Below, one piece after another: positions 908-34,629 of a DNA stretch of 64,000 nt. The notes below the pieces were generated by a model. It did no database searches. It was given only the letters and a program-made list of their open reading frames with translations, and was not told where the DNA came from. The first letter of the stretch is position 1. Every line of letters begins with the position of its first letter. Source of the DNA: a bacterium (GTDB lineage: Bacteria; Sysuimicrobiota; Sysuimicrobiia; Sysuimicrobiales; Segetimicrobiaceae); contig DASYXS010000005.1 in the NCBI GenBank assembly GCA_035934535.1, positions 6,707 to 70,706 of the forward strand. The letters run 5' to 3'. The position numbers were made by a program, and so were the translations under genes.

Positions 908-1789
908 ATGCCCGCATCACCGTTCGACTATCACGCACCCGCGACCGTGGCCGAAGCGCTCTCGACGCTCGGCGCGCTCGGGGAGGACGCGAAGGTCCTC
1001 GCCGGCGGACAGAGCCTCGTGCCGCTGCTCACCCTGCGGCTCGTGCGTCCCGCCGCGGTCGTGGACATCCACGGACTGGACGAGCTGCGCGGCGTCCGCT
1101 TCGACGGCAATACGCTCGAGCTCGGCGCGCTCGTCCGGCACCGCGCGCTCGAGCTCGGCGAAGGGCCGCTCGGGGCGTGTCCGCTGCTCCAGGAAGCGGC
1201 CGCGTTGATCGGCAACGTGCGCGTCCGCGCGATGGGGACGATCGGCGGCAGCCTGGCGCACGCGGATCCGGCCGCCGAGCTGCCCGCGGTCATCCGCGCG
1301 CTCGACGGCGTCCTCGTCGCGCGCGGGCCGGCGGGAGAACGGACGATTCCGGCGGCGGAGTTCTTCACAGGCCTGCTCTCGACGTCGCTCCGGCCGGGCG
1401 AGCTGCTCGTGGCGGTCCGGCTGCCGCTCCCGGCCGGCCGCGTGGGCTACGCGGTCGAGGAGTTCACCCGGCGCGCCGGGGACTTCGCGATCGTGGCCGT
1501 CATGGCCGCGGTCGAACTGGACGGCGCGGGGCGCACCTCGCGCGTCCGCGTCGCGATCGCCGGCGCGGGCCCGGCGCCGGTCCGGCTGGCCGGCGTCGAG
1601 CGGGCGCTCGCCGGGGTCGAGCCCTCGGAGCAGGCGTTCCGGCAGGCCGTCGCCGATCAGCGATTGGAGATCGAGCCCGACGACGACGTGCACGCCTCGG
1701 CCGATTACCGCCGGCATCTCACCCGCGTGCTGACCGCGCGGGCGTTGGTCCGCGCCGCCGCGCGCGCGGCGAAGGGAGCGGGGGCATGA
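908..1789 (+). CDS. Molybdopterin dehydrogenase FAD-binding (medium, CoxM-like) subunit
   Basis: ORF-track protein MPASPFDYH...; CoxM/XdhB-like FAD-binding fold motifs (AGGQSL, GTIGGSLAHADPAAE); stop overlaps next start (ATGA). Confidence 0.85.
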   Translation: MPASPFDYHAPATVAEALSTLGALGEDAKVLAGGQSLVPLLTLRLVRPAAVVDIHGLDELRGVRFDGNTLELGALVRHRALELGEGPLGACPLLQEAAALIGNVRVRAMGTIGGSLAHADPAAELPAVIRALDGVLVARGPAGERTIPAAEFFTGLLSTSLRPGELLVAVRLPLPAGRVGYAVEEFTRRAGDFAIVAVMAAVELDGAGRTSRVRVAIAGAGPAPVRLAGVERALAGVEPSEQAFRQAVADQRLEIEPDDDVHASADYRRHLTRVLTARALVRAAARAAKGAGA

Positions 1790-2325
1790 CGGAGCTGACC
1801 ATCGCCTTCACGTTGAACGGGGAGCGGCGCGAGGTCCGCGCCGCGGCGCACGAGACCCTGCTCACCCTGTTGCGGGACGGTCTCGGCGCGACGGAGGTCA
1901 AGGACGGCTGCGGGGAAGGCGTCTGCGGCACCTGCACGGTTCTGCTCGACGGCGAACCGGTGAGCAGCTGCCTGCTGCTCGCGGCCCGCGCCGCCGGGCG
2001 CAGGGTGACCACCGTGCGCGGTCTCGCGCCGGTGGACTCGCCGGCCACCATGAAATCACAGCCGGTCGGAAGCCTGAGCCCGCTGCAGCAGGCGTTCGTG
2101 ACCCACGGCGCGGCGCAGTGCGGATTCTGCACGCCGGGGATGCTCCTCACCGCGCACGCGTTCTTGCAGCAGCACCCGCGGCCGACGCGCGACGACATCC
2201 GCCGGGCGATCTCCGGGAACCTCTGCCGGTGCACCGGCTACGCCAAGATCATCGACGCGATCGAAGCCGCATCGGCCGGCGATGCGGCGCCGGCCGGCTC
2301 CGCGGGCGGCCGCCATGAAGGGTAG
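1786..2325 (+). CDS. Molybdenum hydroxylase (2Fe-2S)-binding small subunit (CoxS-like)
   Basis: Cys clusters CGEGVCGTCTV and QCGFCTPG...CRCTGY; contains one copy of the ~45 bp intragenic repeat (extra ~10 aa SPATMKSQPV between the two Fe-S domains). Confidence 0.85.
   Translation: MTELTIAFTLNGERREVRAAAHETLLTLLRDGLGATEVKDGCGEGVCGTCTVLLDGEPVSSCLLLAARAAGRRVTTVRGLAPVDSPATMKSQPVGSLSPLQQAFVTHGAAQCGFCTPGMLLTAHAFLQQHPRPTRDDIRRAISGNLCRCTGYAKIIDAIEAASAGDAAPAGSAGGRHEG
2023..2070 (+). repeat. Intragenic ~45 bp repeat, copy 1 (core ATGAAAT 2050-2056) inside the CoxS-like gene
   Basis: cgcgccggtGGACTCGCCGGCCACCATGAAATCACAGCCGGtcgg; translated in-frame as VDSPATMKSQPVG. Confidence 0.55.
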
Positions 2326-2330
2326 GCGCC

Positions 2331-4682
2331 GTGGCTGAGCCCCGGGTCCGCGAGGGCTCGGTCGCGGTCCTTCCCGCCGAGCAGCTCCGCGTCGTCGGGC
2401 GCCCGATCCCGCGCCACGACGCGCGCGACAAGGTTCAGGCGGTGACGCTCTACGCCGCCGACTGGCGGATGCCCGGCATGCTGCACGGCGCGGTGCTGCG
2501 CGCGGTGTACCCGTCCGCGCGGATCCGGCGCCTCGACACCGCGCGCGCGGCCGCGCTCCCGGGCGTCGCCGCGGTGCTGACGGCCCGCGACGTGCCGCAC
2601 AACACGTTGTGGACGGACGTGCCCGGTCAGACGAGCCAGGTCGGCGCGCTGCGCGCACGGCTGCAGGTTCTTGCCGAGCGCGTGGTCCGGTACCAGGGCG
2701 AGCCGGTGGCGCTCGTCGCCGCGGAGACGCCGGAGGCGGCGCAGCAGGCGCTCGAGGCGATCGAGGTCGAGTACGAACCTACGGCCGGCGTCTTCGACCC
2801 GGCGGAGGCGCTCCTCCCGGGCGCCGCGCGCGTGCACGAGGAAGGCAATCTGCTCGCGCGGTGGCACGTGCAGTGCGGTGACGCGGACGCGGCGCTCGCG
2901 CGGGCCGACGTCGTCGTCGAGCACACCTATCGCTGTCAGTTCGTCGACCACGCGTATCTCGAGCCCGAGTGCGGCGTGGCGTGGGTCGAGGCCGACGGCG
3001 TCGTCACGATCCGCGTCGCCACGCAGGTGATCGAGCACTTCCGCGACGTCGCCGACGTCCTGGGGCTGCCCCACAACCGGGTGCGCGTCATCGGCACGTA
3101 CGTCGGCGGCGGGTTTGGCGGCAAAGAGGACGTGACGGTCGAGGTCTTCCTCGGCCTGCTCGCGTCGCGGACGCGGCGGCCCGTCCGCATGATCTGGTCC
3201 CGCCAGGAGTCGCTGCTGGCCCGTCCCAAGCGCCATCCGTTCCGGCTCCACTACACGACCGGGGCGTCGCGCGACGGCGCGCTTGTGGCGCAGAAGGTCG
3301 AGCTGCTGGCGGACTCGGGCGCCTACGCCTATCTCAGCGCGCTCGTGCTGATGTACGCGACCGTCACCGCGGCCGGTCCGTACCGCATCCCGAACGCGAC
3401 GATCGACGCGCGCGTCGTCTACACGAACAACCCGCCGACGAGCGCGATGCGGGGCTTCGGCGGCATGCAGATGGTGCTCGGCTATGAGTCGCAGATGGAC
3501 GCGCTCGCGCGCCGTCTGGAGCTGGACCCCGTCGCGATCCGCGTCCGCAACGCGCTGCACAAGGGAGACCGGCTGCCGGTCGGCCAGGAACTCGAGACGC
3601 ACGTCGGGGTGGCGGAGGCGGCGCAGCGCGCCTGGGCCGCGCTTGGGCCCCGCCGCGCCCCGTCGGCGCCCCACCACCGCGCCGGGCGCGGGCTGGCCTG
3701 CAACATCCAGCCGTACGGACGGATCGTCTGGCTCCACGACTGGGCGAGCGCGTGGGTCGGGTTCGAGATGGACGGGACCCTGGTCGTCCGTACCGGCGTG
3801 CCCGATGTCGGCGGCGGCCAGGCGTCGTCGCTGTGCCAGATCGCGGCCGAGGTCCTCGGCGTCGAGCCGGAACGCGTCGCCGTGCACATCGGCGACAGCG
3901 CGCTCACGCCGCTCGCCGGCACGACGACCGCGACCCGCCAGCTCTACATGTCGGGAAACGCCGTGCTGCAGGCGGCGGCCGGCCTGCGGGCGCAGGTCCT
4001 GCCCGTCGCCGCGCAGATGCTGGAGACGCCGCCCGACCGGGTGACGCTCCGCGACGGCGGGGCGGCCGGCGCGTCGGGCCGGCGCCTCGAGTGGGCCGCC
4101 GTGCTGCGAGAATGCGCGCGACTCGGCGTCTCGCGCAACTACCTCGGAGTGTATCACGCTCCGGCGGGGGACCCGGTCGACCTCGATCGCGGGGGCGGGC
4201 GCATTTTTCCCGACTACACGTTCGGCGCGCACGCCGTGGAAGTGGAGGTCGATACCGAGACCGGCGCCGTCGCCGTCGTGCGGCACGTGGCCTGCCACGA
4301 CGTCGGACGCGCCATCAATCCCCAGAGCGTCGAGGGCCAGATTCAGGGCGGCGCGGTGATGGGACTCGGCTACGGCCTCATGGAGGAGGTCGTCGTGGAC
4401 CGCGGCGTCAACCTGTCCACCAACCTCGCCAGCTACCTGATCCCGACCTCGCTCGACGTCCCGGACGTGGAGCCGCTCGTGCTGGAATCGCGCGAGGGCA
4501 AAGGGCCGTTCGGCGCGCGCGGCATCGGCGAGCCGCCCATCGGGCCGCCCGCCGCCGCGATCGCGAACGCCGTCGAAGACGCCGTCGGCGTCCGCATCAC
4601 CGAACTGCCGATCACGCCGGAGCGGGTGGCGCGGGCGCTGGGGTTGCTGCGGCCGGAGGCCGGTCCGCCCCCGGCCCGCTAG
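2331..4682 (+). CDS. Xanthine dehydrogenase family molybdopterin-binding large subunit (CoxL-like, non-CODH)
   Basis: 783 aa; active-site loop SAMRGFGGMQ typical of the XDH/aldehyde oxidase family (not AYXCSFR or AYRGAGR of CO dehydrogenases). Confidence 0.85.
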   Translation: MAEPRVREGSVAVLPAEQLRVVGRPIPRHDARDKVQAVTLYAADWRMPGMLHGAVLRAVYPSARIRRLDTARAAALPGVAAVLTARDVPHNTLWTDVPGQTSQVGALRARLQVLAERVVRYQGEPVALVAAETPEAAQQALEAIEVEYEPTAGVFDPAEALLPGAARVHEEGNLLARWHVQCGDADAALARADVVVEHTYRCQFVDHAYLEPECGVAWVEADGVVTIRVATQVIEHFRDVADVLGLPHNRVRVIGTYVGGGFGGKEDVTVEVFLGLLASRTRRPVRMIWSRQESLLARPKRHPFRLHYTTGASRDGALVAQKVELLADSGAYAYLSALVLMYATVTAAGPYRIPNATIDARVVYTNNPPTSAMRGFGGMQMVLGYESQMDALARRLELDPVAIRVRNALHKGDRLPVGQELETHVGVAEAAQRAWAALGPRRAPSAPHHRAGRGLACNIQPYGRIVWLHDWASAWVGFEMDGTLVVRTGVPDVGGGQASSLCQIAAEVLGVEPERVAVHIGDSALTPLAGTTTATRQLYMSGNAVLQAAAGLRAQVLPVAAQMLETPPDRVTLRDGGAAGASGRRLEWAAVLRECARLGVSRNYLGVYHAPAGDPVDLDRGGGRIFPDYTFGAHAVEVEVDTETGAVAVVRHVACHDVGRAINPQSVEGQIQGGAVMGLGYGLMEEVVVDRGVNLSTNLASYLIPTSLDVPDVEPLVLESREGKGPFGARGIGEPPIGPPAAAIANAVEDAVGVRITELPITPERVARALGLLRPEAGPPPAR

Positions 4683-14128: not shown

Positions 14129-14130
14129 CC

Positions 14131-18061: not shown

Positions 18062-18064
18062 GCA

Positions 18065-19171
18065 ATGGGGCGGACGCTGGCCCAGGCGCGCAAAGAGCTG
18101 ACGCAGCTCGTCCGCGACCGCCTGTCGCTCGTCCTGGCCCTGGCGCTGCCGGTCGGCCTGCTGCTCCTGCTGGGCCGGGCCTTCTCGCTCTCCGTCGCCG
18201 ACGTCCCGATCGTCGTCCAGGATCTCGACGCGTCCACGGCTTCGCAGGGTCTCATCGATGCGTTTCGCGCGTCCCGCACGTTTCACGTCGTATCGTGGCC
18301 ACCCGACCGCCAACCGGATCAGGCGCTCGCCTCGAACGCCGCCCGGGCGGCGCTGATCATCCCGCCGCATTTCGGGCGCGACGTCGCCCGCGGCGTCCCG
18401 TCGCCCGTTCAACTCCAGGCAGATGGGACGGACGCCAACACCGCCAAGCTGGTATCCGGGGACGCCGCCGAGGTCGTGGCGGCCTACAACGCACGCACCG
18501 CCGGGGCCGGCCATCCTGCCCCGGTCCAGGCGGCGATCCGCCTGTGGTACAACCCCGGTGAGTCGCCCCAGAAGTTTTACGGACCCGGAATCTTTGTCAT
18601 GGCGGTGTCCATCTTCCCGGCCCTGCTGGCCACGCTCGCCATGGCGAAAGAGGGCGAGCAGCAAACGATCCTCCAGGTATACGTGTCGAGCGTCTCGGCG
18701 TCGGAGTTCCTGCTCGGGAAGATTCTCGCGTTCATGGCCGTGGCGCTCGCCGAGACGGTCATCCTGGTCGGGCTGCTGGTGACCACGTTCGGCGTCGGCT
18801 TCGCCGGCGATCCGACGCCGTTCCTCGCCGCCACGGTCCTCTACGCGTTCTGCGTAGCCGCGTTCGGCACGATGGTGGGGGCGGCGATCCCCAACCAGGC
18901 CGCCGCGATGCAGGCCGTGGCCTTCGGCGGCTTCCTCCTCGTGCTGCTCCTGTCGGGGCTCCTGTTCCCAATCGCGAACATCCCCGCCGGCCTGCGCTGG
19001 ATCAGCAACGTTGTGTGGGGCCGATACTACATCGAGGTCGTCCGCGACGCGCTCCTGCAGGGCGGCGGGTGGGCCGCGATGTGGGACAAAGTGCTGATCA
19101 TCGGCGCGATCGGGGCGGTCTTCTACGCGGCGGCGTGGCGGACGATGCGCCGGATGCAGGTCCGCGCGTGA
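18065..19171 (+). CDS. ABC-2 type transporter permease
   Basis: 368 aa, N-terminal TM, large extracytoplasmic loop, then 5 TM segments (YbhS/YbhR-like). Confidence 0.8.
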   Translation: MGRTLAQARKELTQLVRDRLSLVLALALPVGLLLLLGRAFSLSVADVPIVVQDLDASTASQGLIDAFRASRTFHVVSWPPDRQPDQALASNAARAALIIPPHFGRDVARGVPSPVQLQADGTDANTAKLVSGDAAEVVAAYNARTAGAGHPAPVQAAIRLWYNPGESPQKFYGPGIFVMAVSIFPALLATLAMAKEGEQQTILQVYVSSVSASEFLLGKILAFMAVALAETVILVGLLVTTFGVGFAGDPTPFLAATVLYAFCVAAFGTMVGAAIPNQAAAMQAVAFGGFLLVLLLSGLLFPIANIPAGLRWISNVVWGRYYIEVVRDALLQGGGWAAMWDKVLIIGAIGAVFYAAAWRTMRRMQVRA

Positions 19172-20337
19172 CCGCGCCGCTGCGCGCGCTCCGCTCCGGC
19201 CGCCTGCGGGCGCTTGCGGGGAAGGAGTTCCGGCAGATCTTCCGGGACCGGCGCCTGGTGCTCTCGCTCACCGTTGCGCCCGTCGTGCAGCTCCTGCTGT
19301 TCGGATCGGTGCTGAACGCCAACGTGTCGAACGTGAGCCTGGGCGTCGTAGACGAGAGCCGGACGCCCGAAAGCCGGGAATTGGTAGCCGATCTGACCCA
19401 AAGCCAGGCCTTCCGCCTGGGCGGCTATTACGTCTCGGCCGGCCGCCTCGGAGACGCGCTCGGCCGGGGCGCGGTCGACGCCGGCGTCGTGATCCCGTAC
19501 GACTTTGCCCGGGATCTTGTCCGGGGCCGCCCGGCGACGGTGCAATTTCTGTTGAACGCGACGAACGTGAACACCGCCCAGATCAGCCGAGCGTACGCGC
19601 AGGGCGTGATCCAGGCCTACGATGCCGGGCTCGCCGCGCAAGGACTGCACGCGGCCTTCACGCAGATCGCCGCCACGCCGGTGAGCGGCCGGGGGACGAT
19701 CCAACTGGATCCGGCCTTCCTGTTCAATCCCGCCCTCGAGAGTTCGTGGTTTGTCACGACCGGCATCTTCGGAATGCTGATGATCCTCAACGGCACGATC
19801 ATTTCATCCACCGTGATGCTGCGGGAGCGCGAGTTCGGCACGATCGAACAGCTCCTGATGTCGCCGGCGAGCACCGCCGAGATCATGCTCGCCAAGTTCG
19901 TGCCCGTGAGTCTCCTGCTGTCCGCGATGGCGCTCGGCGCGCTCGGGCTGATGCGCCTCGCGTTCGGCGTCCCCGTCCACGGAAGCCTCGTCGTGGTCCT
20001 CGGCGGCGCGGTGCTGTGCCTTCTGGCGGGCGTCGGCCTCGGGACCATGCTCGCGACGTTCACCCAGTCGGCCGCGCAGGCGTTCCTGATGGTGTTGTTC
20101 ATCAATCCGCCGCTGGTGTCGCTGTCCGGGGCGCTCATGCCGGTGGAGGCGATGCCGAAATGGCTGCAGCCGCTGACCGTGCTGAACCCGATCTATCACT
20201 TTGCCCGGATCGCCCGCGGAGCCCTGATCAAAGGCGCCGGCTTTGAGGCCCTCTGGCCCAACTTTCTCGCGTTGCTCGCCTTCACGACGGCGCTCGTCGC
20301 GCTGAGCGTCTGGCGATTCCGCCGCCAGTTGGGGTGA
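19168..20337 (+). CDS. ABC-2 type transporter permease (second)
   Basis: GTGA overlap start at 19168; paralogous topology to the preceding permease. Confidence 0.75.
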   Translation: MTAPLRALRSGRLRALAGKEFRQIFRDRRLVLSLTVAPVVQLLLFGSVLNANVSNVSLGVVDESRTPESRELVADLTQSQAFRLGGYYVSAGRLGDALGRGAVDAGVVIPYDFARDLVRGRPATVQFLLNATNVNTAQISRAYAQGVIQAYDAGLAAQGLHAAFTQIAATPVSGRGTIQLDPAFLFNPALESSWFVTTGIFGMLMILNGTIISSTVMLREREFGTIEQLLMSPASTAEIMLAKFVPVSLLLSAMALGALGLMRLAFGVPVHGSLVVVLGGAVLCLLAGVGLGTMLATFTQSAAQAFLMVLFINPPLVSLSGALMPVEAMPKWLQPLTVLNPIYHFARIARGALIKGAGFEALWPNFLALLAFTTALVALSVWRFRRQLG

Positions 20338-20346
20338 TCGTGACGT

Positions 20347-20619
20347 CTATTTGTAGAAGTACGGGTCGAGGACGCTGACCTGGGTGATGTGATCGACGGG
20401 GAGACCGTTCGCCTGCGCGGCGCGCCGGATGGCGTCCGGGTTCGGTCCATCGTAGATGCAGTACGTCTTGGTCTTGTCCGTGCTCACGTACGAGTGAACC
20501 CAGGTGACGCCTTCGACGCCGTTCTTGCCGACCACGTTCAAGCACGCCTGCGCGCCCTCATCCGTCATAGGGATCTGCAGGCCGCCGGGAAATGTCCGCT
20601 CCACCATGTACCGGGGCAT
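20347..20619 (-). CDS. Small DUF4242-like protein (SCO4226-like alpha/beta protein)
   Basis: 90 aa beginning MPRYMVERTF, recalled as a DUF4242 hallmark; last gene of the minus-strand operon, RBS GGAGGTGA upstream. Confidence 0.45.
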   Translation of the reverse strand: MPRYMVERTFPGGLQIPMTDEGAQACLNVVGKNGVEGVTWVHSYVSTDKTKTYCIYDGPNPDAIRRAAQANGLPVDHITQVSVLDPYFYK

Positions 20620-20697
20620 TTCTCGTCACCTCCGTTGCCGAAGTACGCGCAGATTCTCGCTTGGATTCGTGCGGCCCTTCCGATCTTTTGAGATCTC

Positions 20698-21462
20698 TTA
20701 CAGGAAGATCCGGGCCGGATCGAGGCCGCGCAGCAGCGTCAGTTCGTGCTCGGTCGGGCCCTCGAGCCGCGGGACCTCCGCCGCCGTTTCCAACTTGAAG
20801 CCCGTCTGCTCCTGCACCTGATCGCGCTCCACGCCGGGCTGCAGCGCGACGAGCCGCATCCGCCCGGACGCGGGGTCGAAGTCCATCAGCGCGAGGTCGG
20901 TCACGACCGCGGTCACGCGCCCGAACGGGAGGCCCGCCCCGCGCCGGCCGCCGTCGCCGTCGATCTGCCCCGGGCTGGTCACGAAATCCAGCCGTTCCAC
21001 GAACCGCCGTCGTTCGTGCCGCGTGACGATCATGATCTCCCGGCACAGACACGCGATGTCGCAGGCGCCGCCGCTCCCGGGGAGGCGCACTTTCGGGCGC
21101 TCCACCGGTCCGATCACGCTCGTGTTGATGTTGCCGTAGGGGTCGATCTGCGCTCCGCCGAGGAAGCCGTAATCGAAGTACCCGCGCTGCGCGTAGAGGA
21201 AGATCTGCGTGATCGGCGGCAGCGCGACGGCCCGGCGCGCGCCGCGCATCTCATTCGTCGAGATCGGCAGGCGTCCGGGCTGCACCTCCAGGCCGATCGC
21301 GCCGCCTTCAACGACGATGGTCAGGCCGGGGGCGTGGGTCACGCGGGCGAGCGCGGACGCGAGCAGGGGGGTGCCCACTCCGGCAAACACCACTTTCCCG
21401 TCGGCCAGCAGCCGGCTTGCCGAGACCGCCAGCAGCTCGGACGGGGTGTAGCTCACGTTCAT
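20698..21462 (-). CDS. CoA-transferase subunit B (3-oxoacid/glutaconate CoA-transferase family)
   Basis: 254 aa; family I CoA-transferase beta subunit (core around SENG-like region ...PISTNEMRG). Confidence 0.75.
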   Translation of the reverse strand: MNVSYTPSELLAVSASRLLADGKVVFAGVGTPLLASALARVTHAPGLTIVVEGGAIGLEVQPGRLPISTNEMRGARRAVALPPITQIFLYAQRGYFDYGFLGGAQIDPYGNINTSVIGPVERPKVRLPGSGGACDIACLCREIMIVTRHERRRFVERLDFVTSPGQIDGDGGRRGAGLPFGRVTAVVTDLALMDFDPASGRMRLVALQPGVERDQVQEQTGFKLETAAEVPRLEGPTEHELTLLRGLDPARIFL

Positions 21463-22442
21463 CCGCCGGTCAACTCCCGCGCTACCCGGCGCCGTTCGAG
21501 CATCCGCGCCACGCCGAACTTGTCGAAGTACGCCTCGGCCGTCTCGGGGCCGTACACGTACTCATCGAGATAGGCCCGGGCGCCGGCGACGCCGTCCGTC
21601 GCGACGCGCTTGGCGTAGGCGTCGATGTGCTCGAGATCCACGTCGTACACGCCGTACACCTCGTGCGGATACGCGCCGTAGGGGGCTTCCACGACGGCGT
21701 CCACGGCGAAGAACGGGATGACCGTCCGGTCCGCGGTGCGCCGGATCTGGTCCGGCTCGACGATCTCCTCGGCGCTGAGCACGACGGTCTGCGCGGCCGC
21801 CGCGATGTCCGCGTCCATGTGCGGGTAGCCGTCGATCTGCGCGTTGCCGAAGGGATCGGCACGGTGGACGTGGATCAGCGCGACGTCCGGAAAGAGCGCC
21901 GGCACGAGGCACACCTGCTCGCCCGTGAACGGGCACGCCATCGTCCTGGCGCCGGTGGTGCGCAGGAGGTCGGAGCCGAGCATCGAGAGGGTGGGGAGGA
22001 AGGGCACCCCCATCGCGCCGGCGTGGTAGCGCAGGCCGATCGCAAGGTGGCTCCATTCGTCGAAGCGGGCCTGCCCGCCTTCGACGAACTCGCGGACGAT
22101 GCGGGACAGTCCCCACGGCAGCCCGATCCCGACCCAGCTCGTGACGATTTCGCGGCTGGCGCCCGCGGCCAGGAACAGCTCCGCCTCGTAGCACATCAGG
22201 CTGCGGGACAGCACGACGTCGCGCCGGCGCTGCCGCAGCACCTCGCGCAGCAAGAGCGTCGGGGTCCGCGAGTAGAGGCAGCCGCCGATCGCGATGTGGT
22301 CGCCGTCGCGGACGAGCGCGGCCGCCTCCGCGAGAGACGTCCGCTTGTCGCGCGGCGCCCGTGACTTCGCTTCGAGCCGGCGGCGGGCGTCCACGAACGT
22401 CGCGGGAGGCCGGCCGCCCGCCGGGGTGTCCGGGTTAGGCAC
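21459..22442 (-). CDS. CoA-transferase subunit A
   Basis: 327 aa; glutaconate/3-oxoadipate CoA-transferase alpha-type; overlaps subunit B start. Confidence 0.75.
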   Translation of the reverse strand: MPNPDTPAGGRPPATFVDARRRLEAKSRAPRDKRTSLAEAAALVRDGDHIAIGGCLYSRTPTLLLREVLRQRRRDVVLSRSLMCYEAELFLAAGASREIVTSWVGIGLPWGLSRIVREFVEGGQARFDEWSHLAIGLRYHAGAMGVPFLPTLSMLGSDLLRTTGARTMACPFTGEQVCLVPALFPDVALIHVHRADPFGNAQIDGYPHMDADIAAAAQTVVLSAEEIVEPDQIRRTADRTVIPFFAVDAVVEAPYGAYPHEVYGVYDVDLEHIDAYAKRVATDGVAGARAYLDEYVYGPETAEAYFDKFGVARMLERRRVARELTGG

Positions 22443-23403
22443 GCACCCGCCTCGCGCCGGGGCGCAGCCGGGGCAGGACGTCGTGCGCGATCGCCTCGAG
22501 CTGCTCCGGGCGGTACTCGTGCGGAATGAGGACGATGTGCTCCTCCCCTGCCGCGAGATGCGCCGCGAGCTGCTCCGCGCACTGCTCGGGCGTCCCCCGG
22601 ATCGAGCTCTCCGGCGTCGACTCGCTCCACGGCGCGACGTCGAAGTACCGGCCGACGAAGTCCTTGATGCCGCGGTCCGCCTCTTCGTACGAGGCCGCGA
22701 CGCAGATCGGCAGCTGGCTCACGTTGCGCAGCTCCGCGGGGTTGCGTCCCTGTTCCTCGGCGAAGCCGCGGATCTTCGCCCACGTGGCGCGAAACGTCTC
22801 GGCCGTGTAGAAGTAGGTCAGCCAGCCGTCGCCGTACCGCGCAACGCGCCGGAGCACCCGGTCGACGTAGCCGCCGATGAACAGCGGCGGGTACGGCCGC
22901 TGGACGGGCTTGGGCAGCATCACCGCCTGGTTAAAGACGTAGTTGTCGACCGAACCATTGACGCCGTCCTCTGTCCACAGCCGCCGCAAGATCTCGAGGT
23001 TCTTGACGAAGATCCGCCCCCGCTCCGCGAACGGGATGCCGCAGGCCTGAAACTCACGCTCGTACCAGCCCGCGGCGAGGCCCAGCGTCAGACGTCCTTT
23101 CGAGATCTGATCCAGGCTCGCCAGCTCCTTCGCCAGGATGACGGGGTTTCGCAGCGGCAGCACGAGGACCCCGATGCCGAGCCGCAGCCGCTGGGTTCTT
23201 GCCGCGATCGCGGTGAGGGTCGCGAGCGACTCGAGAAACGGGAACGCCCGCCGGGTGCCGAGCAGAATGTGGTCCCACGCCCACGCGGAGGCGAAGCCGA
23301 GCGATTCCGCCGTCGCCGCGTAGGCGAGGATCTTGTCGATGCTCGGCTCCGCGGTCGCGGGCGTGAAGTTCTCCAGCGCGACCCCGAATAGCGGTTCCCG
23401 CAT
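22435..23403 (-). CDS. LLM class flavin-dependent oxidoreductase (second paralog)
   Basis: 322 aa from MREPLFGVAL...; ATG at 23403 confirmed (CAT 23401-23403); RLTLGLAAGW motif. Confidence 0.75.
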   Translation of the reverse strand: MREPLFGVALENFTPATAEPSIDKILAYAATAESLGFASAWAWDHILLGTRRAFPFLESLATLTAIAARTQRLRLGIGVLVLPLRNPVILAKELASLDQISKGRLTLGLAAGWYEREFQACGIPFAERGRIFVKNLEILRRLWTEDGVNGSVDNYVFNQAVMLPKPVQRPYPPLFIGGYVDRVLRRVARYGDGWLTYFYTAETFRATWAKIRGFAEEQGRNPAELRNVSQLPICVAASYEEADRGIKDFVGRYFDVAPWSESTPESSIRGTPEQCAEQLAAHLAAGEEHIVLIPHEYRPEQLEAIAHDVLPRLRPGARRVRA

Positions 23404-25736
23404 CAGCGTCTCCCTTCGGCCTTCCCGTCCGGGCGGCGGTCCGCCGCAGGTCGGCGGGCATCGAGCGCGCGGACGACCCGCTCCGGCGTCATCGGCAGCT
23501 CCGTCAGGCGCACGCCCACGGCGTTGTGGATCGCGCTCGCGATCGCGGCCGGCGGCGGGCCGGTGGGCGGTTCGCCGATCCCGCGCGCCTGAAACGGGCC
23601 TTTGCCTTCGCCGGACTGGACGATCACGGCCTGCACGTCCGGCAGATCGAGCGATGTCGGGATCAGGTACCCGGCAAACAACGTGCTGAGGTTGTTGCCG
23701 TTCTCGACCACGACCTCCTCCGTGAGTGCCTGGCCGATTCCCATGACGGTGCCGCCCTGGATCTGGCCCTCGACGCTCTGGGGATTGATCGCCTGGCCGA
23801 CATCGTGGCACGCCGCGTACTGGAGCAGGCGGACCGCGCCGGTGTCCGTGTCCACTTCGACCTCCGCGGCGTGGCAGCCGTACGTGAAGTCCGGGAAGGT
23901 GCGTCCCTGGCCGGTCGCCAGGTCCACCGGCGGCGCCTGTTCCGCGTGAAAGGTGGCGAGGAGCGCGGCGAGGACGCCCCGGCGGCCGCACTCGGCGACC
24001 ATCCGGGCGAGGGAAATGCGCCGTTCCGGGCTGCCGGCGATCCCGACGTGATCGGCGGCAAACTCCAAGTCGCCTTCCGCGGCTTCGAGCAGTGAGGCGG
24101 CGACGGGGGCCACCTGCTCGCGCAGTTCGCGCGCGCCGCGGAGGACCGCGTTGCCGGACATGTACAATTGGCGCGTCGCGAACGTGCCGCCTGAGAGCGG
24201 CGTGAGGGCGCTGTCGCCGACATGCACGGTGATCCGATCGAGCGATACGCCGAGCACCTCCGACGCGATTTGGGCCAGCGAGGCCGCCTGGCCGCCGCCG
24301 AGGTCGGGCACGCCGGAGCGGATCACGAGCGAGCCGTCGGATTCGAAGCCGAGCCACGCGCCGGCGCGGTCTCTAAACCAGACCGTCCGGCCGTAGGGCT
24401 GGATGTTGCAGGCAAACCCGCGGCCGACCCTGGCCGACGGGCCCGACGGCCGGCTGCGCTCGCCGAGCGCGGTGGTGGCGCGCCGCACGAGTTCGGGCAG
24501 CGCGACATGGGTCTCGACGGACTCGCCGGTCGGGAGGCGGTCGCCCTTCGCGAGGAAGTTGCGCGCCCGGATCTCCTCCGGGGCGAGGCCCAGCCGCTCG
24601 GCGAGAGCGTCCATCTGCGACTCGTAGGCGAACGTGACCTGCATCGCGCCGAACCCGCGCATCGCGCTCGACGGGACGTTGTTGGTGAAGACCGCCCGGG
24701 CGTCGATGGCGACGTTCGGAATCTTGTACGGGCCGGCGCCGGTGACAAGCGCCGCGAACAGCACCCGCGGGCTGAGCAGCGGGTAGGGGCCGGCGTCGGC
24801 GACGAGCGAGATTTCCTGCGCGACGAGGCGGCCGTCGCGGGTGGCCCCCGTTTTGTACCGCATCGTGAACGGATGCCGCTTTGGGCGGGCCAACAGCGAG
24901 TCGTAGCGGCTCCACACCATGCGCACCGGCCGTCCCGTCTTCCACGCCAGCAGCGCGAGGTACGGCTCGACGGTCATGTCCTCTTTGCCGCCGAACCCGC
25001 CGCCGAGAAACGGCGTGACGACGCGGACGCGATTGTGCGGCACGCCGAGCATCTCCGCGATCTCCCGGAAGTGTTCGATGACCTGCGACGACGCCCGGAC
25101 GTTGACCACGTCTTGCGCGTCGATCCAGGCGACGCCGGCCTCCGGTTCGAGGTAGGCATGGTCCACGCGCTGGGTGCGGTACGTCTCGTCGACCACGGCG
25201 TCCGCGCGCCGGAACCCCTCGGCGACGTCGCCGCGCCGCAGCGTCCAGTGGACGAGCACGTTGTCCCGGCCGTCGTGAACGCGCGGCGCATCGGGAGCCA
25301 GGGCGCGCTCGGCGTCGAACAACCCCGGCAGCGGCTCGTACTCGATCTCGATCGCTTCGAGCGCTGCCTGCGCCCGCTCCGCGGAATCCGCCGCCACGAG
25401 CGCCATCGGTTCGCCCTGATAGCACACCCGCCCGGCGGCGAGGACCGGCGTGGCGAACCGGATCAGGCCGATGCCGGTCGGGTCTTCCTCGACGGCGTTG
25501 TGGGGCACATCGGCGGCGGTCAGCACCGCCGCGACGCCCGGGATCGCCCGGGCCCGGGCGACGTCGAGCCGGCGAATCCGCGCCGACGCGTGGAGGGAGC
25601 GAAGGACCGCCCCGGCGAGCATGCCCGGCAGCGCCCAGTCCGCCGCGTAGCGGGTGGTTCCGCGGATCTTATCGACCGCGTCGAAGCGGGGCTGCGGTCT
25701 GCCGACGACCCGGTACTCTACGCGCCGGCTATCCAC
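23403..25736 (-). CDS. Xanthine dehydrogenase family molybdopterin-binding large subunit (orphan; no adjacent FAD/FeS subunits)
   Basis: Paralog of 2331-4682 (VVGRP...YAADW, SSAMRGFGAMQ); start placed at GTG 25736 (MDSRRVEYRVVGRP), which overlaps the upstream PxpA-like gene by 19 nt; start uncertain. Confidence 0.75.
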   Translation of the reverse strand: MDSRRVEYRVVGRPQPRFDAVDKIRGTTRYAADWALPGMLAGAVLRSLHASARIRRLDVARARAIPGVAAVLTAADVPHNAVEEDPTGIGLIRFATPVLAAGRVCYQGEPMALVAADSAERAQAALEAIEIEYEPLPGLFDAERALAPDAPRVHDGRDNVLVHWTLRRGDVAEGFRRADAVVDETYRTQRVDHAYLEPEAGVAWIDAQDVVNVRASSQVIEHFREIAEMLGVPHNRVRVVTPFLGGGFGGKEDMTVEPYLALLAWKTGRPVRMVWSRYDSLLARPKRHPFTMRYKTGATRDGRLVAQEISLVADAGPYPLLSPRVLFAALVTGAGPYKIPNVAIDARAVFTNNVPSSAMRGFGAMQVTFAYESQMDALAERLGLAPEEIRARNFLAKGDRLPTGESVETHVALPELVRRATTALGERSRPSGPSARVGRGFACNIQPYGRTVWFRDRAGAWLGFESDGSLVIRSGVPDLGGGQAASLAQIASEVLGVSLDRITVHVGDSALTPLSGGTFATRQLYMSGNAVLRGARELREQVAPVAASLLEAAEGDLEFAADHVGIAGSPERRISLARMVAECGRRGVLAALLATFHAEQAPPVDLATGQGRTFPDFTYGCHAAEVEVDTDTGAVRLLQYAACHDVGQAINPQSVEGQIQGGTVMGIGQALTEEVVVENGNNLSTLFAGYLIPTSLDLPDVQAVIVQSGEGKGPFQARGIGEPPTGPPPAAIASAIHNAVGVRLTELPMTPERVVRALDARRPAADRRPDGKAEGRR

Positions 25737-26506
25737 GTCCCGAGCGCCGCGACCTCGACGCCCGCCCCCTCGAGCAAGCCACGGAGGCTCCGCACCGCGG
25801 CGCGCGAGGGCGCGTGATCGCCGTGGAGGCAGATCGTGTCCACCTGGACCTCCACGGGCGTGCCGTCCACGGCGGGAATCCGTCCGTCCCGCACCGCGCC
25901 GACGGCCCGGCGGCACATCTCGTCCGGATCCATCAGCATCGCGTCGGGCCGGCGCCGGCTGGCCAGCGTGCCGTCCGGCATATAGGCCCGGTCCAGGAAG
26001 AACTCCCGCGCCACCCGAAGGCCGGCGGCCCGGACCTGGGCGGCGAGCCGCGAATGCGGCGTCGCGACGACGGCGAGGTGCGGATCGATGCGTTTGACCG
26101 CGGCGGCGATTGCGCCCGCGGTCCCCTCGTCCACCTCGGCCACGTTGTAGAGGGCGCCGTGCGGCTTCACGTGCTGGAGCCGCCCCCCGAGGGCTTCGAC
26201 CATGCCGCGCACCGCCGCCACCTGGTAGAGCACGAGATCATCGACTTCCTGCGGCGCGAGATCCATCTTGTGCCGGCCGAACCCGATGAGGTCCTGATAG
26301 CCGGGATGCGCGCCGATCGCCACGTGGTGGCGCCGCAGCAGCTCGACCGTCTTGCGGATCGTCGCCGGATCGCTGGCGTGAAAGCCGCACGCGATGTGCG
26401 CCGAGGTGAGGTACGGCGCGATCTCCTCGTCCTGCCCCATGGGCCACCGGCCCAGGGATTCCCCCATGTCCGCGGAGATGTCCACGCGCCGCGACGCCGC
26501 TGCCAT
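25718..26506 (-). CDS. 5-oxoprolinase subunit A / LamB-YcsF family lactam hydrolase (PxpA-like)
   Basis: 262 aa; LamB/YcsF family conserved regions (ISADMGES..., AHIACGFHASD, ICLHGD); no pxpB/pxpC nearby. Confidence 0.8.
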   Translation of the reverse strand: MAAASRRVDISADMGESLGRWPMGQDEEIAPYLTSAHIACGFHASDPATIRKTVELLRRHHVAIGAHPGYQDLIGFGRHKMDLAPQEVDDLVLYQVAAVRGMVEALGGRLQHVKPHGALYNVAEVDEGTAGAIAAAVKRIDPHLAVVATPHSRLAAQVRAAGLRVAREFFLDRAYMPDGTLASRRRPDAMLMDPDEMCRRAVGAVRDGRIPAVDGTPVEVQVDTICLHGDHAPSRAAVRSLRGLLEGAGVEVAALGTWIAGA

Positions 26507-26646
26507 CGACGGGCCTCCTTCTCCTGGCGAAGATCTGCCGATGTAGGACCAGAGCCGACGGGCCCACTAATTCGGTTCCGCGATCGATGAGCCCTCTCCG
26601 GGCGTCCCGGCAGGGCGCGTGCGCGCGCGGTCAGAACCCTAGGAGC

Positions 26647-27681
26647 ATGGATTGGGAACGGCGTCGGCGTCCGGTGGACAGCGTGCTCGATACCGCGGGG
26701 CTCACCCCGCTCGTCAGGCTGCAGCGGGTCACCGGCCCGGCGTCTGCGGCGGTGTTGGCCAAGCTGGAGTTTTTCGGGCCGAGCGGGAGCGTCAAGGATC
26801 GCATCCTCCCGTACCTCGTCGCGGAGGCGGAGCGGCGGGGTGAGCTGCGAGCGGGCATGATCGTGATCGAGGGGACGACCGGTAATACGGGGATCGCCAC
26901 CGCGATGGTCGGCGCGGCGAAGGGCTACCGGGTCATCATCGTGATGCCGGCGGGCATGAGCCGGGAGCGGCAGGACGTGATTCGCGCCTACGGCGCCGAG
27001 CTGGTACTGACACCCGGCGGGGAGAGCGACGTCGACCTCGTCCTCGACAAGGTCCGCGCGCTCAAGGCCGAGCACGGGGCGAACATCTGGGAGGTCGGAC
27101 AGTTCACCAACGTCGACAACGTGCGCGCGCATATGCAGACGACGGGCCCGGAGATCTGGGAGCAGACGGAGGGACGGGTCGACGCCTTCGTCGCGGCGCA
27201 GGGGACCGGCGGCACGCTGACCGGCGTGAGCGCGTACCTCAAAGCCAAACGCCCCGATGTGCTGTGCTTTGCGGTCGAGCCGGCCGAATGCGCGATCCTC
27301 GCGGGGCGCGGGTGGGGGCCGCATCGGATCGAGGGGATCGGGGACGGGTTCATCCCGGAGGTGCTCGACTTGAAGTGGGTGGACGGCGTCGTGACCGTGT
27401 CCTCGGACGACGCGATCGCGATGGCCCGCCGGCTGGCGCGTGAGGAGGGCATCTTCTGCGGCATCTCCTCGGGATGCAACGTCGCGGCGTGCCTGAAGCT
27501 CAGCCGGCGCTACCCGCGCCTTGGGACGATTGTGACGATGATCAACGACAACGGGCTGCGCTACCTGACGACGGAACTGTGCGGCGCGGCGCCCGATCTC
27601 ACGGTGCCGGACCGCGACCACGCGCCGCGGCCGGACGACGCGCGCCGGCTCGCCGGCAAGCCGCTCACGGTCGTCGAATAG
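26647..27681 (+). CDS. Cysteine synthase family PLP-dependent enzyme (CysK/CysM-like) with C-terminal tail
   Basis: ATG 26647 (MDWERRRR..., RBS AGGAGC); PLP Lys motif SVKDR, GTTGNTG loop, GISSG; ~35 aa C-terminal extension. Confidence 0.8.
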   Translation: MDWERRRRPVDSVLDTAGLTPLVRLQRVTGPASAAVLAKLEFFGPSGSVKDRILPYLVAEAERRGELRAGMIVIEGTTGNTGIATAMVGAAKGYRVIIVMPAGMSRERQDVIRAYGAELVLTPGGESDVDLVLDKVRALKAEHGANIWEVGQFTNVDNVRAHMQTTGPEIWEQTEGRVDAFVAAQGTGGTLTGVSAYLKAKRPDVLCFAVEPAECAILAGRGWGPHRIEGIGDGFIPEVLDLKWVDGVVTVSSDDAIAMARRLAREEGIFCGISSGCNVAACLKLSRRYPRLGTIVTMINDNGLRYLTTELCGAAPDLTVPDRDHAPRPDDARRLAGKPLTVVE

Positions 27682-31910: not shown

Positions 31911-32894
31911 ATGCCCGAGCCGCGCATCTATCTCACCCAGCCGATTCCCGACGGGGCGCTGGCGCGCCTGCGCGGCCTTGGGCCGGTCGAGATGTACGAC
32001 GACCCGCTCACGATCGCGCCCCGCGACCGGCTGCTGGCCGGCGTGCGCGAGGCCGACATCCTCTTCTGTCTCCTCCACGACCGCATCGACGCGGACGTGT
32101 TGGCCGCGGGAGAGCGGCTGCGGCTCGTCGCCTGCATGGCGATCATTCCCGCGAACATCGATCTGGCCGCGGCGACCGGGCGCGGGATTCCTGTCACGGT
32201 CATCCCCCCGCTCGTCACCGAAGCCACCGCCGACGTGAACATGGCGCTGCTGCTCGCCGTGGCGCGGCGGATCGTCGAGGGCGACCGGCTGCTGCGCGCC
32301 GGCGTCTTTCCCGGCTCGCAATCGATGCATCTCGTCGGCGGCACGGTGCACGGCAAGACGCTCGGCATCGTCGGGCTCGGCGCGATCGGCCGGGAGGTGG
32401 CGAAGCGCGGGCGGGGCTTCGGGATGCGCGTGCTGTACGTGAAGCGCCGGCGCCTGCCGGACGCGGAGGAGGGCGCGCTCGGCGTGGAGTGGGCGCCGCT
32501 CGACGCCCTGCTGCGGGAGGCGGATTTCGTGTCGGTGAACGCGCTCTTCACTCCCGAGACGCGGCACCTCATCGGCGAGCGCGAACTCGGCCTCATGAAG
32601 CCGACGGCGTACATCGTCAATACCTCGCGCGGCCCGCTCATCGATGAAGCGGCGCTGGCGCGGGCCCTGCGGGAGCGCCGGATCGCCGGCGCCGGCCTCG
32701 ACGTGTACGAGGACGAGCCGCGGGTCACCCCGGAGTTGATCGGTTTGCCGAACGTGGTGCTGACGCCGCACGTCGGCAGCGCCGACCGCGAGACCCGCGA
32801 GCGGATCGCCGGGGTCGTCGTCGACAACATCGAGGCGTGGCTGCGCGGAGACCGCCCGCCGAACGTCGCCAACCCCGAGGTCTACGCGCGGTGA
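31911..32894 (+). CDS. D-isomer-specific 2-hydroxyacid dehydrogenase (glyoxylate/hydroxypyruvate reductase-like)
   Basis: NAD-binding GIVGLGAIGREVAKR, catalytic R/E/H arrangement (NTSRG, TPHVGS); 327 aa. Confidence 0.85.
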   Translation: MPEPRIYLTQPIPDGALARLRGLGPVEMYDDPLTIAPRDRLLAGVREADILFCLLHDRIDADVLAAGERLRLVACMAIIPANIDLAAATGRGIPVTVIPPLVTEATADVNMALLLAVARRIVEGDRLLRAGVFPGSQSMHLVGGTVHGKTLGIVGLGAIGREVAKRGRGFGMRVLYVKRRRLPDAEEGALGVEWAPLDALLREADFVSVNALFTPETRHLIGERELGLMKPTAYIVNTSRGPLIDEAALARALRERRIAGAGLDVYEDEPRVTPELIGLPNVVLTPHVGSADRETRERIAGVVVDNIEAWLRGDRPPNVANPEVYAR

Positions 32895-32931
32895 GCGCGC
32901 GCCGGCGCCGGCGGCCGGGCGAGGTGGGCGC

Positions 32932-34629
32932 ATGCTGACGGTCAAAGAGGCGCTGGAGCTCGACGTGCTGCGCGACGTGAAGATCGTGGCCGGCAGTGAG
33001 GGGCTCGACCGGCAGATTCGCTGGTGCCACATCATCGACAACCCCGAGATCGTCCGCTGGATCCAGGGAGGCGAGCTGCTGCTCACGACCGGCTACGGCT
33101 GGCCGGAGATGGAGCAGACGAGCCGCCGCACGATCCGGGCGCTCAACGGCAAGCGGTTGGCCGCGATTCTCTTCGATCCCGGGCCGTTCCTCGGCGAGAT
33201 TCCGGCCAACGTCGTCGACGAGGCGGGGCGCCTCGAGCTGCCGGTGCTCGTCGCGCCGCGGAAGCTGCGGTTCGCCGACGTGACCGAGGCGGTCGGACGC
33301 GAGCTGATCCGGCGGCAGTACGCGATCATCGAGCGCGCCGACCGGTATCACCGTCAGATCACCGCCGCGGCGGTGGAGGCACGCGACCTCAACGACATCG
33401 CGCGCACCGTCTGCGGCCTGACGCGCCGGTCCGTCGCCATCGAAGACGCGGAGTTCCGGCCGCTCGCGCGGGCGGACTCGCCCGCAACGATGAAATTGCA
33501 GCGGGCCGAACACGGCGACGGCGCGGGAACCCCGTCGGCGGCGGCCGGCCCGGCCGCGGGCGTTCCGCCGTTCCCGCACGACGGCCCGGAGTGGCGGGCG
33601 CTGCGCGAACGGCTGCGGGGCGCCGACGGCGCCGTGCGGCAGGACGGCCGCGTGGCGTGCGCGATCAGGGCCGGCAGCGAGCTGCTCGGCTACCTGTGGA
33701 TCCTCGAGGGCCAGGCGCCGCTCGGCGATCTCGAGCTGCGGGTGGCCGAGCACGGCTCGATGGTCGCGGCGCTGCACATCCTGCGCCAGCGCTCGCAGGC
33801 CGCCGTTGAGGCGAGAATCGGCCACACCGTCGTCGACGCGCTGATCCGCGGCGACGTGCCGGCGGAAGATCTGATCGAGCGGTCGCGGCTCCTCGGCTTC
33901 GACCCGGACGGCGATTATGTCGTCATGATGGTCTCGCTCATGGACCGCGCCGCCCGAGGCCGCAAGTGGCCGCTGACCAGCCGCGACGAGTATGATCGGC
34001 GCGAGCACGCCGCGCAGGTGCTGCGGCGCCTCTTGGGACAGGACCGGCTGCCGATCCTGTGCACGTACTCGCTCAACCGGATCATCTGTCTTCTGTCGGT
34101 GAATCGCATGCCGGATGCGCCCGAGTGGCCGCGCCGGTTCGCGCGCCGGCTGCACGAGCATCTGGCCGGTGCGGACGGTGTGCCGCCCGTGCTGGTGACG
34201 TTTGGGACGGCACACGCCGGGCTGGCCGGCGTGTCCAAGGGCTACTGGGAAGCCGACCGGGCGCTCGCCCTGGCCAAGGATGCCGACCGCATCTTGTTCT
34301 TCGAGGATCTCACACTCGCCCATCTCCTGGCGCAGATCTCGGACACGACCTCGCTGCAGGCGATGTACGCGCGGACGCTCGGACCGGTGCTCGCCGGCCC
34401 GAGGGGCCGCGTGCTGAGAGAAACCCTCTGGGCGCTCGTCGACGCCGGGTTCAACAGGGAGACGGCGGCCGCGGCGCTCGGCATCCACCGCAACACGATG
34501 CGCGGACGGCTGGAGCGGGTGCAGGCGCTGCTCTGCCGGCCGCTCGGCGACCCCACCGTTCGCCGCGACCTCGCAGTGATCAAGGAGATCGAGCAGTTGT
34601 TGGTCCCCGAATCACGCCCGACGATCTGA
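32932..34629 (+). CDS. PucR family transcriptional regulator
   Basis: 565 aa; PucR N-terminal ligand-binding domain and C-terminal HTH (ETAAAALGIHRNTMRGRLERV); contains one copy of the intragenic repeat (ADSPATMKLQRAE). Confidence 0.75.
   Translation: MLTVKEALELDVLRDVKIVAGSEGLDRQIRWCHIIDNPEIVRWIQGGELLLTTGYGWPEMEQTSRRTIRALNGKRLAAILFDPGPFLGEIPANVVDEAGRLELPVLVAPRKLRFADVTEAVGRELIRRQYAIIERADRYHRQITAAAVEARDLNDIARTVCGLTRRSVAIEDAEFRPLARADSPATMKLQRAEHGDGAGTPSAAAGPAAGVPPFPHDGPEWRALRERLRGADGAVRQDGRVACAIRAGSELLGYLWILEGQAPLGDLELRVAEHGSMVAALHILRQRSQAAVEARIGHTVVDALIRGDVPAEDLIERSRLLGFDPDGDYVVMMVSLMDRAARGRKWPLTSRDEYDRREHAAQVLRRLLGQDRLPILCTYSLNRIICLLSVNRMPDAPEWPRRFARRLHEHLAGADGVPPVLVTFGTAHAGLAGVSKGYWEADRALALAKDADRILFFEDLTLAHLLAQISDTTSLQAMYARTLGPVLAGPRGRVLRETLWALVDAGFNRETAAAALGIHRNTMRGRLERVQALLCRPLGDPTVRRDLAVIKEIEQLLVPESRPTI
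33463..33510 (+). repeat. Intragenic ~45 bp repeat, copy 3 (core ATGAAAT 33490-33496) inside the PucR regulator gene
   Basis: ctcgcgcgggcGGACTCGCCCGCAACGATGAAATTGCAGCGGGccgaa; about 76% identical to copy 1 over ~50 nt; translated ADSPATMKLQRAE. Confidence 0.55.

Follow-up and report, generated by a model that had tools for sequence, protein, structure and literature searches.

Catabolism of heterocycles initiated by a molybdenum (Mo) hydroxylase is of a known kind. In Eubacterium barkeri, nicotinate dehydrogenase (NdhFSLM) acts in the anaerobic nicotinate pathway, which proceeds by Mo hydroxylation, ring reduction, and cyclic amide hydrolysis. 4-Hydroxybenzoyl-coenzyme A (CoA) reductase (HcrABC) and 2-furoyl-CoA dehydrogenase (HmfABC), both of the xanthine dehydrogenase (XDH) family, act on CoA thioesters and link a Mo enzyme with the activation of aromatic acids by CoA. 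In the 2,8-dioxopurine pathway, a Mo hydroxylase, ring reduction, and a cyclic amidohydrolase are followed by a terminal fold-type II pyridoxal phosphate (PLP) ammonia-lyase that yields pyruvate (10.1101/2025.04.24.650524). Here, we describe six minus-strand genes, at positions 20347-26506 of a 64,000-nucleotide stretch of bacterial DNA (the window; G+C ~70%), that share features with each of these systems. The window lies on contig C122 of a 3.64-Mb metagenome-assembled genome (MAG) that is 93% complete. From the 5′ end, the block encodes a PxpA/LamB-YcsF family lactam decyclase (PxpA), a Mo hydroxylase large subunit, an F420-class luciferase-like oxidoreductase (LLM), subunits A and B of a glutaconate-type CoA-transferase (CtA and CtB), and a small DUF4242 protein.

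The block belongs to a real, conserved gene cluster, which most likely serves to break down a ring-shaped acid containing nitrogen or sulfur. We give an even chance to the more specific proposal that the six genes make up an operon for the catabolism of a heteroaromatic carboxylic acid and that its large subunit is served by FAD (CoxM) and [2Fe-2S] (CoxS) subunits encoded 19 kb away, at 908-2325. What appears to be new is the enzyme set, together with an orphan large subunit that is still under selection.

Each described system matches the cluster in part. Among solved structures, NdhFSLM comes closest to the large subunit, but the window protein is a fused chain of 777 amino acids (aa) without its own FAD and Fe-S subunits, and it stands with an F420-class LLM reductase, a PxpA hydrolase, and an added CoA-transferase and PLP enzyme, while none of the downstream nicotinate fermentation genes of E. 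barkeri are in the window cluster. Unlike in HcrABC and HmfABC, CoA would be supplied by a transferase of the GctAB type rather than by a ligase, and the thioester substrate is a candidate. GctAB of Acidaminococcus fermentans, whose family also includes the decarboxylase AibAB and the ring hydrolase IpdAB, has two subunits of matching size and is the best solved match to CtA (GctA, 1poi_A, 8e-39) and CtB (GctB, 1poi_B, 1e-45), with the beta-subunit glutamate kept; however, the match is moderate (137 and 159.5 bits, respectively) and the surrounding genes have nothing to do with glutamate fermentation. PxpABC shares the PxpA family, and Actinomycetota versions of the cluster carry PxpA, PxpB, and PxpC together, but in the window and its whole family PxpA is solo, scores under the equivalog cut-offs, and lies in a putative catabolic operon. 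Finally, the 2,8-dioxopurine pathway has a YgeX-family enzyme in common with the Actinomycetota sister clusters, which also carry PucR regulators and NCS1 permeases, but it is without CoA-transferase, LLM, and PxpA, and the window has a CysK-like enzyme in place of YgeX. Homologues of SsnA, YgfK, and YgeW were not seen in the cluster loci.

In line with the original prediction, we found no described pathway to match, and no paper on this gene combination in the literature, including the topics DUF6282, furoyl-CoA/thiophene, and F420 with Mo hydroxylase. Soil bacteria have an abundance of Mo hydroxylase clusters, most of them without a known substrate. This one has a constant core with interchangeable hydrolase and PLP modules, and solving its pathway would bring to light a new role for solo PxpA as well as a new step in which a ring is reduced with F420.

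A conserved, coupled gene cluster

Profile searches assigned the expected domains to all six open reading frames (ORFs; Table 1), and the start codons of two were corrected. The longest large-subunit ORF, from 25916, is over-extended, as homology starts only near residue 60-70. An in-frame GTG at 25736 is the homology-supported start, yielding the 777-aa protein and a 19-nucleotide (nt) overlap with the pxpA stop (25718-25720). The pxpA ATG at 26506 is preceded by a strong ribosome-binding site (AGGAGAAGGAGG). At 23405-23401, the sequence TGATG joins the stop of the large-subunit gene to the LLM start; the LLM and CtA genes overlap by 8 nt if CtA begins at GTG 22442 (a second possible start is the in-frame GTG at 22394); and CtA and CtB share a 4-nt ATGA at 21459-21462. 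Only the DUF4242 gene stands slightly apart, preceded by a 78-nt gap with its own GGAGG ribosome-binding site. The block is bordered by a convergent ABC-2 permease gene that ends at 20337 and by the divergent CysK-like gene that starts at 26587. A scan of 20000-27000 for sigma-70-like sites and minus-strand terminators identified none; hits were not more numerous than in shuffled sequence, which makes the scan uninformative at 70% GC. The junctions support reading the six genes as one tightly coupled unit.

Table 1. Features of the window discussed in the text
Feature	Positions	Strand	Profile matches and remarks
PxpA/LamB-YcsF family lactam decyclase	25718..26506	-	PF03746 9e-88; ATG start
Mo hydroxylase large subunit, orphan, 777 aa	23403..25736	-	Ald_Xan_dh_C + MoCoBD_1 + MoCoBD_2
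F420-class luciferase-like oxidoreductase (LLM), 322 aa	22435..23403	-	PF00296; TIGR03619
CtA, glutaconate-type (class I) CoA-transferase subunit A	21459..22442	-	PF01144
CtB, glutaconate-type CoA-transferase subunit B	20698..21462	-	PF01144; catalytic glutamate
DUF4242/SCO4226-like small protein	20347..20619	-	PF14026
CysK-like fold-type II PLP enzyme (PALP), divergent from block	26587..27681	+	TIGR01139
CoxM-type FAD subunit, candidate trans partner	908..1789	+	PF00941 + PF03450
CoxS-type double [2Fe-2S] subunit, best candidate trans partner	1807..2325	+	PF00111 + PF01799
Paralogous Mo hydroxylase large subunit	2331..4682	+	62% identical to orphan
PucR-family regulator, possible cluster regulator	32764..34629	+	PucR + GGDEF_2 + HTH_30

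Large-subunit relatives, taken as one genome per species, gave 80 loci, onto which the window proteins were mapped and for which a tree was built. Closer relatives were added from a collection of proteins and from whole genomes within the window's family, and presence and absence were tabulated for 38 loci (17 from the family and 21 from Actinomycetota). The orphan subunit fell into a 21-row clade with 100% support. All other members lie in LLM-CtA-CtB-...-CoxM-CoxS-L clusters (L, large subunit) of Actinomycetota, except one (L031) whose contig begins inside the large-subunit gene. The phylogenetic placement thus goes halfway toward an outcome that the original prediction had named as refuting it: the grouping is firm and the operon of the clade explains all the neighbors, but the clade is itself uncharacterized. 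The Actinomycetota carriers are Mycolicibacterium, Streptomyces, Pseudonocardia, Tamaricihabitans, and Solirubrobacterales. Since cultured strains of the four named genera are among them (Mycolicibacterium brisbanense JCM 15654, Pseudonocardia acaciae DSM 45401, Tamaricihabitans halophyticus DSM 45765, and Streptomyces sp. NBC_01618), the pathway should be solvable by ordinary genetics and growth tests. CtA orthologues were present in 5/5 genomes of the window's genus and 14/22 of its family, but in 0/38 from other families of the order.

Within the family, the full order on one strand is PALP-PxpA-CoxM-CoxS-L-LLM-CtA-CtB (loci L081, L104, and L106), while the whole window genus, as well as loci L105 and L109, has the trimmed order PALP-PxpA-L-LLM-CtA-CtB. 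Over the 38 loci, the constant core consists of the Mo enzyme, LLM, CtA/CtB, and a fold-type II PLP enzyme. The other modules vary. A PxpA orthologue is present in 10/17 family loci, always without PxpB and PxpC, and the rest have none. In Actinomycetota, the ring hydrolase is either PxpA with PxpB (8 loci, PxpC being detected in 7/8) or DUF6282 (10 loci), and PxpA+PxpB and DUF6282 never occur together in the 21 loci. The PLP enzyme there is of the diaminopropionate ammonia-lyase family in 15/21 clusters (NF006058, 347.9 bits against a cut-off of 276); in the window's family it is CysK-like and lies next to the cluster in each of the 12 loci whose sequence reaches that side, co-directionally in 7/12, including L081, L104, and L106. 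The gene list of the original prediction held for its six genes but omitted the CysK-like gene, a more constant member than PxpA or DUF4242; the DUF4242 gene, though present in the window, follows CtB solely in same-genus loci. PucR-family regulators adjoin 11/21 Actinomycetota clusters, which also occur with NCS1 permeases and XdhC, and Liv-type ATP-binding cassette (ABC) importers recur beside the family versions. Judged by gene content and order, the window cluster is a trimmed copy of a family-conserved cluster with a sister version in Actinomycetota.

The trimmed order accounts for the orphan large subunit. Its operon contains no CoxM or CoxS, as originally predicted, the nearest pair being at 908-2325. 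Complete relatives encode CoxM-CoxS between pxpA and the large-subunit gene, and the absence of both from the whole window genus and from L105 and L109 points to a deletion at exactly this position. According to two trees, one of them with labels, there were at least two independent losses. Read from gene order, the orphan state represents a secondary loss of the subunit's own CoxM and CoxS.

Candidate substrates and reaction steps

The three XDH-family domains of the large subunit (1.6e-24, 4.1e-81, and 4e-72) all score above Pfam cut-offs, but the protein falls under the cut-off of all 13 NCBIfam equivalog models tried (for example, pucD, 540.8 against 783.65; 4hydrxCoA_A, TIGR03194, 510.7 against 994.55; and XdhA, 480.6 against 780). 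The best single solved chain was the alpha subunit of 4-hydroxybenzoyl-CoA reductase (HcrA, 373 bits, 3.7e-110). We dropped HcrA as the nearest relative after summing the split matches to the E. barkeri enzyme (NdhL, 326 bits, 3.5e-96; NdhM, 198 bits, 3.6e-57; sum, 524). The active-site motifs GGFGGKE, AMRGFG, and GIGEPP are present and align with NdhL, and at the position of the catalytic Glu in GIGEPP, HcrA likewise has its Glu. The roles of these residues we take to be those of E802, R880, and E1261 in bovine xanthine oxidase. The motifs point to a subunit competent for hydroxylation, in support of the proposed catabolic role.

The original prediction considered the LLM to be a flavin monooxygenase. 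Instead, it scores within the F420 class TIGR03619 (203.8 bits against 166.9), and the genome encodes F420 biosynthesis genes above their cut-offs (cofE, 251.5 bits; cofH, 463.9 bits). Since the NADPH:F420 reductase gene npdG adjoins the cluster in five Actinomycetota loci, we read the LLM as an F420H2-dependent enzyme, most likely a ring reductase. In CtB, E52 of VVEGG corresponds in the alignment to the Glu in the GctB motif IIVESG, a position at which the decarboxylase AibB has N or S. As this catalytic Glu is kept, CtA/CtB is probably a true CoA-transferase. PALP passes the CysK model TIGR01139 marginally (353 bits against 350.95), and its motifs for the PLP lysine, Asn loop, and phosphate loop (SVKDR, TTGNTG, GTGGT, and GISSG) align with a solved CysK (2egu), suggesting a near-canonical CysK. 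PxpA exceeds the cut-off of the subfamily model NF003814 (314.5 bits against 226) but is under all PxpA equivalog cut-offs (e.g., NF003813, 258.1 against 392). Neither the window nor any of the 17 family loci yielded a PxpB or PxpC. The sole PxpB/PxpC pair of the genome, at C5:3536-5008, has no PxpA alongside, and a second PxpA (C51:5491-6252), 46% identical to that of the window, is without PxpB/PxpC. Canonical 5-oxoprolinase genes are thus scattered in this genome.

The interchangeable hydrolase and PLP modules are a pointer to the chemistry, and module content together with the Liv-type importers suggests uptake, hydroxylation, CoA activation, ring reduction, and amide hydrolysis. In the pathway that we propose, a heteroaromatic carboxylate would be taken up and converted by CtA/CtB to its CoA thioester, with CoA probably drawn from a downstream thioester of the same pathway. 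The Mo hydroxylase would add an oxo group, its oxygen derived from water, at the ring carbon beside the heteroatom, giving a lactam or cyclic (thio)carbamate. The F420H2-dependent LLM would reduce the activated ring C=C, so that hydroxylation and ring reduction together would be near redox-neutral overall. PxpA would then open the ring amide, and the CysK-like enzyme would handle a beta-substituted alanine or released sulfide by beta-elimination or beta-replacement chemistry.

Three precedents favor azole-4-carboxylates as substrates. A eukaryotic-type 5-oxoprolinase converts 2-oxothiazolidine-4-carboxylate to cysteine (PMC6257297), and 2-imidazolidone-4-carboxylate inhibits that enzyme (10.1101/325530). 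In the 2,8-dioxopurine pathway, a hydantoinase acts on a ureido-substituted hydantoin, opening its five-membered ring, before diaminopropionate ammonia-lyase (YgeX) ends the pathway (10.1101/2025.04.24.650524). By analogy, the favored class would be a five-membered azole-4-carboxylate, whose 2-oxo-azolidine-4-carboxylate intermediate resembles 5-oxoproline; this choice is tentative, and we hold it doubtful. A fuller version seems decidedly improbable: an oxygen-independent, near redox-neutral route for thiazole- or imidazole-4-carboxylate, combined with two large subunits that share one CoxS/CoxM pair in an arrangement that arose at least twice. Within this route, the Mo enzyme would oxidize C2, and the electrons would return via F420 to the LLM, which would saturate the ring of the CoA ester. 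The 2-oxo-azolidine-4-carboxylate would be opened by PxpA alone, or by PxpABC or DUF6282 in other lineages, and either the CysK-like enzyme (S-containing ring) or diaminopropionate ammonia-lyase (N-containing ring) would finish the route to pyruvate.

Several points weigh against the proposed operon function. All steps and their order are drawn from family membership and gene neighborhood, and the loci, coming from related genomes, are non-independent samples. CoA transfer could come last, with a dicarboxylate product as its substrate, instead of opening the pathway. PxpA, thought to be the decyclizing subunit of a three-subunit ATP-dependent 5-oxoprolinase, normally requires PxpB/PxpC and ATP (PMC13274462), and the genome's only PxpB/PxpC genes are those on contig C5, with none in the cluster. 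No npdG above cut-off was found in the 93%-complete genome. Lastly, the CysK-like gene could encode an ordinary cysteine synthase that is kept nearby for other reasons.

We weighed two other routes, both of which we regard as unlikely but still as serious rivals of the azole reading. The first is a nicotinate-like route for a pyridine carboxylate, modeled on E. barkeri, in which a 6-hydroxy acid would undergo F420H2-dependent reduction to a tetrahydro-6-oxo acid, PxpA or DUF6282 would open the ring in the manner of enamidase, and CtA/CtB would activate a glutarate-type dicarboxylate in the last step. The summed NdhL and NdhM match and the same logic of hydroxylase, ring reductase, and cyclic amidohydrolase speak for it, as does the fact that C5 dicarboxylates are substrates of glutaconate CoA-transferase homologues. 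However, this scheme leaves the constant PLP enzyme of fold type II, in its CysK-like and its diaminopropionate ammonia-lyase form alike, without a role, the downstream E. barkeri genes were not seen in the cluster loci, the large subunit is fused rather than split into L and M, and it shows, as judged by eye, moderate identity with NdhL in its N-terminal 415 residues. The isonicotinate-citrazyl-CoA route of Mycobacterium sp. INA1 was also set aside, as it leaves the PLP enzyme unexplained and the literature found on citrazinate/isonicotinate consisted of chemistry papers, with nothing on the cluster.

The second, of equal standing, is a Trudgill-type route for thiophene-, pyrrole-, or furan-2-carboxylate. 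Here the Mo enzyme would hydroxylate the CoA ester at C5, PxpA would open the resulting (thio)lactone or lactam, the C5 dicarboxyl-CoA would return its CoA via the GctAB-like transferase, and CysK would trap sulfide. This route is in keeping with the second-best solved relative, the CoA-ester-specific 4-hydroxybenzoyl-CoA reductase, with a GctAB-type transferase, which suits a 2-oxoglutaryl or glutamyl-type CoA donor, and with the near-canonical CysK at the locus; in addition, pyrrole-2-carboxylate would yield 5-oxoproline, which fits the PxpABC of the Actinomycetota version. Yet it leaves the diaminopropionate ammonia-lyase of 15/21 Actinomycetota clusters unexplained, the TIGR03194 score of the large subunit is far under its cut-off, and, to our knowledge, a ring reductase is not required in the routes described for furoate and thiophene.

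Selection on the orphan subunit and its candidate partner

The large-subunit gene has a ratio of nonsynonymous to synonymous substitution rates (dN/dS) of 0.13-0.19 when compared with four same-genus orthologues, all of which are without CoxM/CoxS. These values are indistinguishable from those of PxpA, LLM, CtA, and CtB (a dN/dS of 2.67 for PALP against L100 is an alignment artifact and was disregarded). The orphan subunit is thus maintained by purifying selection. The 777-codon frame is also intact in at least 8 genomes that lack CoxM/CoxS. Both results argue against an inactive leftover beside a working unit of PALP, LLM, and CtA/CtB (with or without PxpA). Such a leftover would fit a locus without CoxM/CoxS, and some metagenomic contigs carry CtA-CtB-LLM, with or without PALP, but without the Mo enzyme; however, the catalytic motifs and the translational coupling on both sides are also kept, making a leftover very unlikely.

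The large subunit probably borrows CoxS and CoxM of 908-2325. This pair, put forward in the original prediction, is the best-supported choice by CoxS identity and dN/dS. It is encoded in a complete SDR-CoxM-CoxS-CoxL operon on the plus strand (117-4682), whose large subunit (2331-4682) is the orphan's closest paralogue in the genome and, in the trees, falls in a neighboring clade with SDR-CoxMSL operons of Rokubacteria and Methylomirabilota. When the cluster CoxS and CoxM of relatives were used as stand-ins for the lost genes, CoxS 1807-2325 was 63-69% identical to the cluster CoxS, while the genome's other six CoxS proteins reached at most 53%. This CoxS keeps all eight cluster cysteines. Further, six relatives have the SDR-CoxMSL operon in linkage, 13-24 kb from the cluster, whether the cluster's own CoxM/CoxS are present or not. 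Selection on the orphan, the repeated loss of CoxM/CoxS, the closest CoxS, and the linkage in relatives together lead us to favor borrowing.

Two results count the other way. The CoxM comparison fails to single out the window copy, since CoxM 908-1789 (49-51% identical to the relatives' cluster CoxM) is tied with a copy on contig C16 (~50%). Moreover, the genome holds 15 XDH-family large-subunit genes against 6 CoxM and 7 CoxS genes, and the six large-subunit genes without an adjacent partner (6/15) leave room for a general partner. That the large subunit works independently of CoxS/CoxM and passes electrons to another partner, such as directly to the F420/LLM couple, is the least likely reading, for although large subunit and LLM are translationally coupled, LLM-L pairs without CoxM/CoxS recur on contig C10 and in locus L008, and partnerless genes are numerous, CoxM/CoxS belong to the ancestral cluster, a close paralogue of CoxS is encoded in linkage with it, and we know of no XDH-family hydroxylase that works without a [2Fe-2S] subunit.

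Repeated loss of CoxM/CoxS under continued selection on the large subunit amounts to a natural experiment on subunit sharing among paralogous Mo hydroxylases. Subunit sharing, in turn, bears on how the many orphan coxL-like genes in genomes, such as the 6/15 of the window genome, are to be read.

Contigs C171, C9, C78, C90, and C10 of the same genome were noted for partnerless large-subunit genes. On C10, the partnerless gene (20115-22466) directly follows an LLM gene (19077-20060), echoing the L-LLM pairing of the window. Loci L002 and L008, ~25 kb apart on one contig of an Actinomycetes MAG, hold two paralogous large subunits: one in a full CtA-CtB-DUF6282-racemase-like-CoxM-CoxS-L cluster, the other directly preceded by an LLM gene and without adjacent CoxM/CoxS. 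In the window CoxS, a ~45-bp intragenic repeat (2023-2070) falls within the linker, variable in length, that joins the two [2Fe-2S] domains.

Neighboring genes and variant loci

The DUF4242 protein matches PF14026 (86.9 bits against 28.5) but is under the cut-off of NF033706, the SCO4226 nickel-binding equivalog (26.4 against 125). Between its gene and the E1 alpha/beta genes lies a TetR-HlyD-ABC2 efflux operon (14113-20337). In one same-genus contig (P0020 place), the E1 genes come directly after the DUF4242 gene without the efflux operon, pointing to either an insertion in the window lineage or a loss in the other.

Variant loci extend or rearrange the cluster. On a more distant contig, at L113:249-12719, genes for a Liv-type ABC importer are directly followed by another partnerless large-subunit gene, with PALP-CtA-CtB-LLM and a lone PxpB-like (CT_C_D) gene, without PxpA or PxpC, coming after it. 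At L081:11738-13754, the cluster runs on into genes for a DHDPS-family aldolase and an enolase-superfamily (MR_MLE) protein, and the extended cluster is flanked by two peptide-type ABC importers. In the window, ~6 kb from pxpA, the PucR-family regulator gene begins inside a gene (31857-32894) for a D-2-hydroxyacid dehydrogenase.

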